Part shown: piece after piece, positions 26,301 to 29,300 of the stretch
Position numbering within the stretch: position 1 is the first letter of the stretch
Layout: the number at the start of each line of letters is the position of its first letter
NCBI GenBank assembly: GCA_965218425.1
Contig: OZ244621.1
Span: forward strand, 2,720,001 to 2,784,000
Direction: 5' to 3'
DNA from: an uncultured Candidatus Binatia bacterium
GTDB lineage: Bacteria; Desulfobacterota; Binatia; UBA9968; CAXXLF01
DNA length: 64,000 nt
Made by a program: the position numbers

Positions 26301-29300
26301 ATCGGCCTGGTGCTACAGGACGTTTTTCTCTTTTCGGGTGACGTCTTGACCAACATCTCCCTCGGTGACACCTCGGTTCCCTTGGAGCGCATCGAACAAG
26401 CCGCCCGGGCCACCAACGCCGCGCGTTTTATCCGGAAACTGCCCGGTGAATTCTCCGCACAGGTACGGGAACGCGGGAGCAACTTCTCCTCGGGTCAGAG
26501 ACAGCTCTTGGCCATGGCTCGGGTGCTTGCCTATGACCCTGAGGTGCTGGTGCTGGACGAAGCCACCTCCAGCGTGGATACCGAAACAGAGCTTTTGATT
26601 CAGGATGCCCTGGAAAAAATCATGAGGGGCCGCACCTGTCTGGTGATCGCTCACCGCTTGTCCACCATCCGCAATGCGGACCGGATCATTGTCATGCACC
26701 GGGGGGAAATCCGCGAGATGGGAACCCATGCGGAGTTGCTGGAAAGACAGGGGATCTACTACCGTCTCTACCAGCTCCAGTACGAGAGGGAAGAGTGGGC
26801 AGCGGAAATGGGAGCCCCCCGTGCTAAACTCATCGACTAGGTTGCCGGGATATCTCCGGGTCTTCATTCCCGATCTCACATGCGCGCCCCCGTTCTATTG
26901 ATTCTTCTGGTATTATTCTCGGGTTGTTCGCCCGTTTACGTTATTCGTGCCGCTTATGAGGAGACAAAGATCCTTTGGAGGCGCGAGCCCATCGAAAAGC
27001 TGCTGAAAAACCCTGCGTTGGATACCGAGACTCGAAAAAAATTCGAGCTGGTCCTGGCGGTTCGTGACTATGCCCGTGACAAGCTCAGATTGAGGGTTAA
27101 GGGAAGCTATGCCTCCTATTCCCGCCTGGGTCGACCGGTTCTCTCTTATGTGCTAACTGCGGCCCCTCAGACCAGTCTGGAGCCTTATACCTGGTGGTTC
27201 CCTTTCGTGGGACGGTTGCCCTACAAAGGCTATTTCTCCCAGGCGGAGGCGGAATCCAAGGCCAGAGAATTCCAGCAAAGGGGATATGACACCAGCATCC
27301 GCCCGGTGTCGGCCTTCAGCACCCTGGGCTGGTTCGACGATCCCCTGTTGAAGCATCTCCTGCGGTTGGACAAGGTCGATTTGGCGGAGGTCATCTTTCA
27401 CGAGCTCTTGCACAATACTCTGTTCGTAGCCGGGTCGGTAAATTTCAATGAAAGCCTGGCCAACTTTTTCGGCAACCGCGCGGCAATGGGTTTCTTTCGC
27501 GATCGTTACGGAGGATCGAGCCCCGAGTACTCGCAGGCAGCCGCGGCCTGGGAGCGGGAGCTGGAGTTTTCTGGATTTATCACCCGGGTTGCCGATTCTC
27601 TCGAAGAGCTCTATCAAAAGGACCTGTCGAGAGAAGAAAAACTCCGGCTGCGGGAGGGTATTTTTTCCCGTAGTCGAAAGGAATGGGTCGAACAGGTTGC
27701 CGGCAAGCCGCAACATCAGTACCGGGGGTATGGCGAACGGGAAGTCAACAACGCGACCATGGTTCGATATCTCCTCTATCTCGGCGGTCTGGAACTCTTT
27801 GAGTCGCTGTACGAGGCGCGGGGAAAGGATCTGGTGAAATTGATGGATTCGATCCGGCAATCCATCGAAAGGGGTGAGCCCCCCTTTGAGGCCGTCAGGG
27901 ATCTCGTGCCCCTGTCGAGGCCAGACCCTAAGGGAGAGACGCCGCCGGGCGCCGGTCTGAGTCCGGCGTTCGTTCCCGGAAACAGTAAAGCCAGGCGCCT
28001 TATTCCGCCGGTACCCGACGTATCCGCCGTCCCTCTTTCCACCGCCCCGAAGGCGAGTAGGGGCTCCGTGCCGGCGGCGGTTCATCAAACCTCGCGGGGA
28101 GTCCATGGTTGATCATCGGGCCGAATCGGTGAAATTCGCAGCGGACAGAATGCTGGGGAGGCTGGCCAAGTGGCTTCGCATCATAGGCCACGATGTGGCC
28201 TACGGTTCCCATCTGGCGGGCTATGGGTTGGTCCGCACCGCACGGAAAGAAGACCGCTTGATCCTGACCCGCGACCGTGGAATCCGTAAGAAAGGCCCTC
28301 CCGACTATCTGCTCATCGAGAGCACCCGGTTCCGTGAGCAGCTCAGGCAGGTGATCCATGCCTATGGTTTGGATCCTGTAAAGAACGCCTTCACCCGGTG
28401 CGTGGAGTGTAATGACCTCCTCGATCCGATCCCCAAAGAGGCGGTTCAGGAGAAGGTTCCCCCTTACGTTTTCTCAACACAAGAGAGGTTCAGTGTCTGC
28501 CGGCACTGCCAGCGGGTCTACTGGCCCGCCACCCACCTGCACAAGATGCTGGAGGAGTTGAAGAGCCTGAGTGCGGGCCCGCGTGCAATTTAGCCGAGGT
28601 GTATGGCTGTGACCTTTTCTTGTTGCGGCTATTCGCCGTAAGGCGAATTGAAAAATCGGGTGAATTCAGGCAACTCCAAGTCCCAAGCGAAATCGAAGGA
28701 TAGGGGAATCCTGAGCGAAGCCCGCCGAAGGGGAATTTAGTAGGCAGGAACGTGCAGAGACTAGAGGTTGAGGACCCTGCCAATAAAACCTCGCTGGCGT
28801 CCGGCACCCATTTCTCAAATGTTTGAAGAGATATGGGTGATGAGATAGTCCAAGCCCGGTAGAAATATCAGGAGTACTTGTAACCACCGTGTCGGGGGTT
28901 CGAGTCCCTCCCGGGGAGCCATTTTTTCGGGGGCGAACTACAGCGCCTCGATAGTTAACGCGAGGCCCTGGAGGGTGACCCCTTCGGGGCTTCGTCGTAT
29001 CTAGCCATTTTTCAAGCAGTTACGCCCCCTCCTACATGCTCCTCGATTCTCCGGTTCTCCAACCGGACGCCGCGGGGTGTCTGCAGGGCGCTCCCCAAGT
29101 TGTTCACGGTCAGCGAGATCGGGCTGACCCCTGGCGCTGCTGCGGTGTCTGGGCACGACGAACGTGATCGACAACACCCACTCGGAGATGCCCCAGCGAA
29201 TGCGGCGGGTGACTCGGCAGAGGGACGGATCCGCTGGGCGGCCGCCTCGTTCCTGGACGCCGAGAGGAACTACTACACGATCATGGGCTGCCCGGATCTC

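Follow-up and report, generated by a model that had tools for sequence, protein, structure and literature searches.

A stretch of 64,000 nt of bacterial DNA (the window) contains, next to a gene for a Mut7-C domain protein, a group I intron followed by the 3′ half of a tRNA-Asn(GUU) gene. This relic is very probably a decapitated tRNA-Asn pseudogene that has kept its intron, with an intron-less copy elsewhere in the genome doing the work. Its parts are listed below in window positions; positions on contig C1 are marked as such.

26880..28112, + strand: putative aminopeptidase gene, ancestral neighbour 5′ of Mut7-C (Pfam PF10023, E 7.6e-87)
28076..28567, no strand assigned: duplicated segment, 482/493 identical (blastn) to C1 ~4331235-4331727 on the opposite strand
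28105..28593, + strand: gene for a 162-aa Mut7-C domain protein, native at its 3′ end (Pfam PF01927, E 8.3e-42)
28594..28606, + strand: remnant of the Mut7-C/tRNA spacer, ending at the putative deletion junction (microhomology TGG, 28604-28606)
28604..28610, + strand: 5′ exon remnant TGGCTGT, equal to tRNA-Asn positions 29-35; 5′ splice site after T28610
28605..28630, + strand: P1 hairpin, 28605-28613 pairing with 28622-28630 (cmscan alignment)
28611..28880, + strand: group I intron, 270 nt (RF00028, 80.7 bits); omega-G is 28880
28632..28647, + strand: P2 with GUAA loop; 6 pairs, 4 changed on both sides, 100% paired
28656..28662, + strand: P3 5′ strand, pairing with 28798-28804; 7 pairs, 100% paired
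28666..28714, + strand: P4-P5-P5a domain; 6 pairs changed on both sides
28716..28752, + strand: P6/P6a; C28723 opposite A is a mismatch private to this genome
28757..28763, + strand: P7 5′ strand with bulged A, pairing with 28846-28851; invariant in 8/8 sequences
28764..28792, + strand: extra hairpin between P7 and P3′; 6 pairs, 100% paired
28798..28804, + strand: P3 3′ strand (structure alignment of 8 sequences)
28805..28839, + strand: P8; 7 pairs, 3 changed on both sides
28846..28851, + strand: P7 3′ strand, inside the invariant GAGATAGTCCAAG
28855..28872, + strand: P9 with GAAA loop (structure alignment of 8 sequences)
28881..28921, + strand: 3′ exon, matching the intact gene letter for letter over tRNA-Asn positions 36-76, CCA included (blastn-short, 41/41)
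28905..28927, + strand: weak terminator-like site formed by the exon end and a T run (pattern scan only; 1 site, with shuffles predicting 1.3)
28923..31040, no strand assigned: non-ancestral 3′ flank with a PadR-like regulator and others; counterpart absent from G001 and G002

The 3′ exon is an exact copy of the corresponding part of the genome's sole tRNA-Asn(GUU), as an earlier note on this DNA had stated; blastn aligned 42/42 positions (28881-28922), which comprise 41 nt of tRNA and the next base. The same note held the 5′ part of the tRNA to be missing. This is correct for the acceptor and the D arm, but the last seven letters of the 5′ exon, TGGCTGT (28604-28610), remain and P1 is complete; these letters match the 5′ exon end of the intact gene and of 10 relatives. 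Without the acceptor 5′ strand, the D arm and a whole 5′ anticodon stem, the relic does not qualify as a functional tRNA gene. ARAGORN detected no tRNA in the window and, when applied to the whole genome with introns allowed, none at the relic locus, as had been claimed before. After in-silico removal of the intron, ARAGORN recognised tRNA-Asn(gtt) in 82/83 loci, the sole failure being the relic window. A second copy of tRNA positions 1-35 was sought across the genome and not found, which speaks against trans-splicing with a separately encoded 5′ half. The relic cannot yield a tRNA.

The junction was characterised by comparing the window (CCGAGGTGTATGG) with the related genome G001 (CCAGGGTGTGTGG-TAGG) and with the tRNA (...AGGTGG-CTGT). 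On this alignment, the start of the Mut7-C/tRNA spacer is joined to tRNA position 29 by a deletion across 3-4 nt of microhomology. The distance from the Mut7-C stop to the 5′ splice site is 17 nt, within which a pattern scan detected no terminator-like site. The earlier report of public-run contigs that bridge Mut7-C, the junction, the intron and the exon was borne out for three studies: the contig of X1 record 3 spans 28574-28920 with 0 differences, that of X2 record 9 spans 27900-28920 with 1 difference, and that of X4 record 18 spans 28095-28920 with 7 differences, none of them at the junction. The source sample could be among them.

The ABC transporter and aminopeptidase genes 5′ of the relic are syntenic with those of G001 (tblastx), the adjacency of aminopeptidase and Mut7-C recurs in G039, and the 3′ end of Mut7-C aligns with G001 together with the 13 nt after its stop. 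In 10/10 published relatives, 37-887 nt separate Mut7-C from the intron-bearing tRNA-Asn downstream of it, and many further genomes of the order have Mut7-C 5′ of an intron-less tRNA-Asn. Judged from this gene order, the relic occupies the ancestral Aminopeptidase-Mut7-C-tRNA-Asn locus. Downstream, identity to the tRNA copy ends one base past CCA, and the flank is non-syntenic DNA with repeats nearby and no match in G001. The segment 28923-29470, considered as a broken transposase on the basis of its reading frames, gave no Pfam match and has no further copy in the genome.

The whole tRNA-Asn(gtt), the only one that ARAGORN finds in the complete genome with introns allowed, lies at C1 c[4330995-4331070] and is intron-less, in agreement with the earlier note; it is 1.58 Mb away from the relic and oppositely oriented. 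Both loci adjoin a copy of Mut7-C, and the 98% identity previously given for these copies (482/493, blastn) was reproduced. Since the loci are unrelated in the 3′ ends of Mut7-C and in the ~150 nt before it, a simple duplication of the whole module would need several further events. At the second locus, Mut7-C is preceded by ~50 nt of G001-like sequence, and the locus also carries a spacer segment containing TATAAA and a terminator with a 16-bp stem; this terminator is the ancestral one. The 3′ exon of the relic and the intact gene share a C and a G where T stands in 6/6 and 5/6 outgroups, and in G001, and other tRNA-Asn 3′ parts of the order are 88-95% identical, none exactly; by these shared letters, the two are sister copies. 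In the X4 contig, the Mut7-C beside the intron has all seven letters of the other copy, a pattern that points to exchange between the Mut7-C copies or to a chimeric contig. The 2% divergence of Mut7-C is therefore a poor clock.

Several origins of the second locus were considered and rejected. An RNA-mediated origin is unsupported, as the copy has ~50 nt of G001-like upstream DNA and a promoter-like spacer, and the genome has no PF00078. An inversion through the inverted Mut7-C copies does not fit the flanks, since those of the second locus map to two G001 contigs, C5 and C4, and the 3′ flank in the window is unmatched. Transposition of the module is countered by the lack of flanking direct or terminal inverted repeats, the terminator hairpin being the only one present. 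The textbook route to precise intron loss needs a reverse transcriptase; a profile search of the genome found no reverse transcriptase (PF00078), so the enzyme for this route is absent today.

The proposed course of events begins at the ancestral locus, where a group I intron of a widespread, HNH-associated tRNA-Asn family would have inserted into the tRNA gene after U35. The Mut7-C/tRNA-Asn module would then have come to exist twice in the lineage, the second copy (C1 ~4.331 Mb) keeping a promoter-like spacer, the whole tRNA and the ancestral terminator, having no intron, and now serving as the sole tRNA-Asn. At the old locus, a single deletion between 3-4 nt of microhomology would have taken the spacer with its promoter-like piece and tRNA positions 1-28. 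The end of the 5′ exon, the complete ribozyme and the 3′ exon would have been spared, and the sequence beyond that exon would likewise have been exchanged for other DNA. The intron-less copy could have arrived from a conspecific strain instead of arising by loss in place. The phrase "in the course of loss", used in the earlier note, describes the situation fairly. The anatomy, homologies, junction and distribution are shown by the data, while the order of events, the route by which the second copy lost its intron and the ribozyme's competence are inferred.

The claim of a complete group I core at the locus holds: RF00028 matches 28601-28872 on the + strand with 80.7 bits (E 5.1e-20 in the window search; curated cut-off 50 bits) over model positions 1-253 of 253, and this is the single RF00028 match in the whole genome. 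Intact relatives score 77.7-102 bits. The core length of 272 nt given earlier is the Rfam span, which begins within the exon remnant and ends short of omega-G; with boundaries set by comparison with the intron-less gene and relatives, the intron measures 270 nt. In P1, GGCUGU|GAC pairs with GUUGCGGCU, with a U28610.G28625 wobble at the 5′ splice site; its 9 pairs are formed in 95.8% of cells across 8 sequences. Omega-G falls at G28880, immediately 5′ of the letters identical to the intron-less gene. The P1 loop has 8 nt, and an endonuclease gene is absent. A hand-drawn P1-P9 structure for 8 sequences gave 96.2% paired cells with 15 pairs changed on both sides, against 33-44% in controls slid by 1-3 columns and 0/500 shuffles reaching the observed value; P7 is invariant, so its support is conservation without covariation. 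Relative to the Rfam consensus, which has two bases between P7 and P3′, the intron carries a 41-nt insertion there; the extra hairpin sits presumably where P7.1/P7.2 of subgroup IA introns lie. With all helices and core elements present, the ribozyme is probably competent to fold and to excise itself if Mut7-C transcription reads through. Searches of the intron against a phage and a plasmid collection (blastn) returned no match.

The relic ribozyme has mismatches at 4/70 pairs, compared with 1-5 in seven intact introns. Its private changes include some that keep pairing (two G.U pairs in P3, in place of G-C and A-U, one compensated pair in P2 and a new C-G in P5) and others that break it (C.A mismatches in P6 and P5a and the loss of the P4 end pair). 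In otherwise conserved intron columns, 15 changes are specific to this genome and 5 to G001, compared with 14 and 15, respectively, in Mut7-C; this excess (binomial p 0.04; Fisher p 0.08) is only borderline as a sign of relaxed constraint. As there is no clear decay, the changes mostly preserve pairing and the rate excess is borderline, continued selection on the relic RNA is possible.

Such selection would be expected if the relic had been co-opted and served the mRNA of Mut7-C (or of Aminopep-Mut7-C) as a 3′ untranslated region, where it would self-splice or fold, shape or stabilise the 3′ end with the exon and T-run hairpin, and be kept for that purpose. The intact P1 with its U.G pair, core helices and omega-G fit this proposal, as do the 17 nt free of terminator-like sites between the Mut7-C stop and the splice site, the weak hairpin with T6 after the exon and the several private changes that keep pairing; the intron is also letter-identical in contigs of three studies, in which Mut7-C differs at 1-7 places. 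However, the terminator-like match is at chance level (1 found, 1.3 expected), the excess of private changes includes the C.A mismatches in P6 and P5a and the lost P4 end pair, the duplication is recent enough for an intact look without selection, the arrangement was seen in no other genome, and the sequencing runs listed as containing this DNA include no RNA run. Co-option is unlikely, and nothing indicates that the relic is expressed or needed. A more specific version is also a long shot: under read-through from Mut7-C, the ribozyme might splice the mRNA 3′ end onto the tRNA 3′ half (T arm, CCA) or cut itself out, so that what was once a tRNA intron would provide an RNase-domain gene with a self-processing 3′ untranslated region, with the Mut7-C copies continuing to exchange sequence.

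It is highly improbable that the 42-nt repeat marks the attachment site of an integrative island targeting tRNA-Asn. Identity ending exactly one base past CCA, beside a non-syntenic flank with repeats nearby, would suit such an element, and in another genome (L126/L127), 1.36 kb downstream of an intron-bearing tRNA-Asn that is intact, part of the intron and the 3′ exon recur, with an AT-rich insert in between. Yet 1.58 Mb separate the tRNA repeats of this genome, which face opposite ways, Pfam matched no integrase family among the scanned ORFs of >=90 aa beside either copy, the relic at the ancestral locus has the whole intron and exon letters behind a Mut7-C gene with its native 3′ end, and a 493-bp Mut7-C repeat accompanies the tRNA repeat. 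An assembly chimera of the two Mut7-C copies can practically be dismissed: a 493-bp repeat at 98% identity may mislead an assembler, and letters of the two copies are combined in the X4 contig, but contigs of three studies cross the junction, which is homologous to G001 on both sides, and the genome is a single 4.46-Mb contig.

The decapitated pseudogene belongs to an intron type that is far from confined to this lineage. As the earlier note had reported for relatives, the same intron splits an otherwise intact tRNA-Asn between U35 and U36, here in 10/10 published order relatives examined. The count of 13/122 other order genomes with a match was also reproduced (E<=1e-8; 11 without the unpublished G106 and G090), at a ribozyme identity of 73-87%, and the intron is absent from 109/123 order genomes. 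Each intron-bearing genome has one tRNA-Asn match; the other weak tRNA matches in G001 are tRNA-Phe, Phe, Thr and Met. An HNH ORF (Pfam HNH, E 0.004, below the cut-off) is present in 3/10 order introns examined (G004, G067, G077) and absent from 7. A 22-nt signature, covering the end of the ribozyme core, omega-G and the start of the tRNA-Asn 3′ exon, was searched as an exact match and occurs in at least 120 stretches of a species-representative genome collection; among the matches listed, record titles name Clostridia/Eubacteriales, Nitrospira, Aminicenantes/Acidobacteriota, Elusimicrobia, Methylomirabilota/Rokubacteria, Binatia, Omnitrophota, Gemmatimonadota, Cloacimonadota, WOR-3 and others. 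In 80 loci taken from these matches, 72 have the intact tRNA-Asn 5′ exon at the expected place, U-1 and omega-G are present in 72/72, and 14/80 contain a near full-length HNH gene. The relic arrangement recurs in none of the 122 order genomes or 80 wider loci.

The idea of a lineage-wide, undescribed intron with Asn as a new host is therefore unsupported; on the signature matches, the intron type is a known, mobile one, widespread across many bacterial groups, and the relic is a decayed gene, not a new kind of element. The tRNA/site types of bacterial group I introns have been raised from 4 to 21 (10.1101/2020.01.27.920355), in a paper whose main text, as distinct from its table and supplements, does not contain "Asn". 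No relevant paper on a bacterial tRNA-Asn group I intron was found by title or abstract, and the portions consulted of PMC5733544, PMC8450103 and PMC11915505 do not mention one.

With the tRNA-Asn 35/36 intron so widespread, the catalogue of bacterial introns changes little. The relic offers a clean, datable snapshot of intron loss from an essential single-copy tRNA gene, in which an intron-free second copy appears to take over and the old gene is beheaded with its ribozyme still intact. The mRNA tail, P1, ribozyme and tRNA 3′ half form a natural construct for testing splicing of the relic. For annotators, the case cautions against reading a full-length Rfam group I intron match beside a tRNA fragment as proof that a functional tRNA is split there.

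Among known systems, the bacterial tRNA-Asn(GUU) U35/U36 introns are the closest, sharing with the relic the insertion site, U-1, omega-G, the core letters GAGATAGTCCAAG and ...CTTG|TAACC, and hairpin(s) between P7 and P3′; part of the members carry an HNH gene in the P1 loop, which the relic lacks, and their host gene is intact, whereas the relic host has lost positions 1-28. The introns of tRNA-Leu(UAA), tRNA-fMet, tRNA-Ile(CAU) as well as tRNA-Arg(CCU) are likewise small ORF-less anticodon-loop ribozymes in which P1 contains a U.G pair and both P2 and P9 end in GNRA loops, but the relic resides in another tRNA and at another loop position (after nt 35), and its type has a 29-41 nt hairpin between P7 and P3′. 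Classical bacterial tRNA introns belong to subgroup IC3, which has a compact core with no insertion between P7 and P3′; in this intron, a 29-nt hairpin lies there. The model of Goddard and Burt reportedly describes a homing-endonuclease/intron cycle of invasion, endonuclease decay and intron loss, and the order likewise shows a mix of HNH-bearing introns, HNH-less introns and intron-free genomes. Unlike simple excision at one locus, loss here would have proceeded through a second, intron-less copy and decapitation of the first.

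Next to a Mut7-C gene, the relic retains the whole intron and 3' exon, plus the final letters of the 5' exon. The features to which the analysis refers are as follows:

28105-28593, Mut7-C gene (Pfam PF01927, E 8.3e-42) with its native 3' end
28601-28872 (+), group I intron match, RF00028 (80.7 bits, E 5.1e-20, model 1-253 of 253)
28604-28610, TGGCTGT, corresponding to tRNA positions 29-35
28881-28921, 41 letters identical to tRNA positions 36-76 of the intron-less gene (41/41; 42/42 including T28922)
31324-32100, alpha/beta-hydrolase-like ORF within a 1384-bp duplicated segment
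33343-34743 (-), ORF of 466 aa encoding a Fic/DOC domain (PF02661, E 8.3e-9), in the part past the relic that is not syntenic

The RF00028 match is the only one in the 4.46-Mb single-contig genome. ARAGORN identified no tRNA in the window; applied to the whole genome with introns allowed, it placed a single tRNA-Asn(gtt) at C1 c[4330995-4331070], while the relic locus gave no call. Both the perfect 3' copy and the sole, intron-less tRNA-Asn described in the earlier note were reproduced. Since the exact 3' exon begins at 28881, the intron ends at G28880, and TGGCTGT places the 5' splice site after T28610, giving an intron of 270 nt; the 272 nt reported previously is the span of the Rfam match, which does cover the full model. 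Similarly, the 5' part described as missing comprises positions 1-28, while the exon letters at 28604-28610 survive along with a whole P1 helix, in which GGCUGU/GAC pairs with GUUGCGGCU and which contains the splice-site U.G pair. With introns allowed, ARAGORN also reported eight intron-bearing tRNAs elsewhere on C1, e.g., c[623535-624149] and c[1580450-1583515]; these calls are most likely false, because none coincides with an RF00028 match.

The 3' end of Mut7-C and the 13 letters past its stop align to G001, a genome of the same genus (window CCGAGGTGTATGG versus CCAGGGTGTGTGG). Following CCAGGGTGTGTGG, G001 continues with TAGG... into a 566-nt spacer between Mut7-C and the tRNA; in the window, the post-Mut7-C letters pass directly to CTGT/intron, where the tRNA reads ...AGGTGG-CTGT. 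A single deletion between GTGG/TGG repeats thus took out the remaining spacer together with tRNA positions 1-28. Contigs of public sequencing runs from three studies, among which the source sample of the genome may be, cross the junction:

X1 record 3, 28574-28920, 0 differences
X2 record 9, 27900-28920, 1 difference
X4 record 18, 28095-28920, 7 differences, the junction free of them

An assembly artefact is unlikely. Immediately downstream of the relic, window 28923-29290 is single copy in the genome and lacks a Pfam match, and metagenome contigs covering it show many variants, with a summed depth of tens to hundreds versus 4-12 on the flanks; it resembles part of something abundant in these communities. 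Further on, the 1384-bp segment (31046-32428) recurs at C1 472095-473478 with 98.6% identity, and on its flanks lie members of a ~100-200-nt repeat family (32430-32550 and 34997-35213), dozens of copies of which occur in the studied genome and in G001.

Upstream of the relic, a putative aminopeptidase gene (PF10023, E 7.6e-87) and ABC transporter genes retain their G001 order, except that in G001 an additional 4.8 kb separates the aminopeptidase gene from Mut7-C; in G039, from another family, the aminopeptidase gene likewise lies immediately upstream of Mut7-C. In 10/10 published relatives examined, 37-887 nt separate Mut7-C from the downstream intron-bearing tRNA-Asn, and Mut7-C also lies upstream of intron-less tRNA-Asn in many further genomes of the order. 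Together, this synteny and order-wide adjacency show that the window is the ancestral site.

The genes flanking the second locus, which carries the intron-less tRNA-Asn, lie on two different contigs in G001. No integrase family was matched among the neighbouring ORFs scanned there with Pfam, and no flanking repeats of the module were found. As noted earlier, near-identical Mut7-C copies accompany both tRNA-Asn loci (482/493 over window 28076-28567); this core and the 3' exon are all that the loci have in common. Ancestral pieces present at the second locus but lost from the window are:

~50 nt ahead of Mut7-C that resemble G001
a piece of spacer containing a TATAAA box, which precedes the tRNA in G001
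the complete 5' exon
a terminator whose stem has 16 bp, like those of G001 and of G002 from the same order

At alignment columns 292-293, the relic's 3' exon and the intact gene have C and G, whereas T is present in G001 and in, respectively, 6 and 5 of 6 outgroups; none of the order's other tRNA-Asn 3' parts is identical (88-95%). Relic and intact copy are thus sisters within the lineage or have exchanged sequence. In the X4 contig, the intron-adjacent Mut7-C has the other copy's letters at all seven places, within 28231-28512, compared with 28231 only in X1 and X2; this pattern, reflecting gene conversion between the Mut7-C copies or a chimeric contig path, hints at exchange. The 3' ends and upstream stretches of Mut7-C are unrelated between the loci, and so reveal more events than can be put in order.

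The most likely history that we infer begins with the copying of the Mut7-C/tRNA-Asn module to a second site inside the lineage. The second copy would have lost its intron precisely, or been made or replaced from an intron-less allele; with tRNA-Asn supplied from there, the old gene would have been free to decay: a single deletion would have removed positions 1-28 along with the spacer bearing its promoter, and other DNA would have replaced its 3' flank. No PF00078 reverse transcriptase was found in the present genome by Pfam search, and the second copy includes promoter-side DNA, not expected of a copy made through an RNA intermediate.

Intron-bearing genomes of the order have a single tRNA-Asn match each. 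In G001 (96% complete, 7 contigs), the remaining weak hits belong to tRNA-Phe, Phe, Thr and Met, so that, judging from sequence, the interrupted gene would have to supply tRNA-Asn. After in-silico intron removal, 82 of 83 loci were recognized by ARAGORN as tRNA-Asn(gtt), the sole failure being the window. The G001 spacer between Mut7-C and tRNA-Asn also holds two partial copies of the tRNA 5' part:

L002 ~945-1060 and 1372-1460, - strand, each TCCCCGG...AGCAGGT, ~30 nt with two small hairpins, GGCTGT, then CACAA... in place of the intron

A shorter look-alike occurs in G055 (L004 ~1375-1430). These copies may be decayed duplicates or traces of earlier insertions.

To characterize the ribozyme, the relic and seven ORF-less introns of intact genes were aligned (A1), and a structure was drawn by hand after the cmscan alignment, comprising P1, P2, P3, P4, P5, P5a, P6, P6a, P7, P8, P9 and an additional hairpin between P7 and P3'. 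Standard pairs occupy 96.2% of 556 cells in the eight sequences, and 15/70 pairs are changed on both sides; 0/500 shuffles reached the observed values, and sliding partners by 1-3 columns left 33-44% paired, a control that is lenient because the structure was derived from the tested sequences. The P2 and P9 loops are GUAA and GAAA, and J3/4, J6/7, P7 with its bulged A, and GAGATAGTCCAAG are invariant core strands. The relic has 4 mismatched pairs (intact introns 1, 1, 1, 3, 5, 3 and 3), its Rfam score falls within the intact range of 77.7-102, and plain energy folding recovers P1, P2, P4-P5 and P8 (z -2.24). At otherwise conserved intron columns, it shows 15 private changes versus 5 in G001, with 14 versus 15 in G001 for the Mut7-C comparison set (binomial p 0.04, Fisher p 0.08). 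Some preserve pairing (two G.U in P3, a compensated U-A in P2, a new C-G in P5); others break it (C.A in P6 and P5a, loss of the P4 end pair). These counts faintly suggest relaxed constraint on a still-whole ribozyme.

As a tRNA gene, the relic has no function. Its own promoter-like piece is gone, and a pattern scan found no promoter-like or terminator-like sites between Mut7-C and the intron, so read-through would be the only likely source of a transcript. Such an RNA would be equipped to fold and splice; that it has been put to use to let the Mut7-C mRNA process its own 3' end is improbable.

Within the order, the intron is matched at E<=1e-8 in 13/122 other genomes, spread over 11/27 genera when that of the studied genome is counted. 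The unpublished G106 and G090 entered no other part of the analysis, which leaves 11 genomes. An ORF of ~114 aa with CxxC...HH...CxxCH motifs occupies the P1 loop in 3/10 examined introns (G004, G067, G077), its Pfam HNH match (E 0.004) lying below the cut-off. A wider search of a one-genome-per-species collection used the exact pattern GAGATAGTCCAAG, 18-34 letters, CTTGTAACC and matched at least 120 stretches. Among the matches listed, titles include Eubacteriales/Clostridia, Nitrospira and Nitrospirota, Aminicenantes and other Acidobacteriota, Elusimicrobia, Methylomirabilota/Rokubacteria, Binatia, Omnitrophota, Gemmatimonadota, Cloacimonadota, WOR-3, Edwardsbacteria and 'Deltaproteobacteria'. 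In 72/80 fetched loci, the tRNA-Asn 5' exon is intact and terminates in CTGT (introns 234-564 nt), all 72 having U-1/omega-G. Of the remaining 8, contig ends truncate 6, L123 includes a withheld stretch, and L127 repeats part of the intron plus the exon 1.36 kb past an intact gene, on its downstream side. The G004 HNH protein matches 24/80 of these loci: it lies within the intron at near full length in 14 and as remnants in 6, whereas in 4 it is encoded separately, next to the tRNA gene:

L092 and L098, downstream of the intron-bearing tRNA-Asn
L096 and L136, upstream of it

The intron thus belongs to a widespread, mobile-type family and is no feature peculiar to the lineage. Two side observations concern these loci. 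On one Aminicenantes contig (L126/L127, matches 1359 nt apart), an intact intron-bearing tRNA-Asn is followed downstream by a second copy of the intron's last ~110 nt and of the entire 3' exon; the AT-rich insert of ~1.2 kb enclosed by these repeats looks like an element integrated into the interrupted gene. Mut7-C, a PIN-like RNase domain, lies directly upstream of tRNA-Asn, with or without intron, in all three families of the order (e.g., L007-L030), and in only 3/80 wider loci outside it.

The Williams preprint (10.1101/2020.01.27.920355) reported 5292 intron-split bacterial tRNA genes, raised the tRNA/site types from 4 to 21, and numbered the site after nucleotide 35 as position 4. 'Asn' is absent from its main text, Table 1 and Figure 3 being images, and the label 'Asn.4Ug' has no occurrence in the searchable literature. 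No tRNA-Asn group I intron is described in passages of PMC5733544, PMC8450103 and PMC11915505, or in the literature listings. Regardless of the preprint's list, the spread over at least 120 stretches in many phyla rules out a novelty specific to the lineage. The observation of the earlier note is thus confirmed and its reading of a relic supported, but not the new, lineage-wide intron type that it proposed: the relic is a decapitated new case of a known, widespread intron kind.
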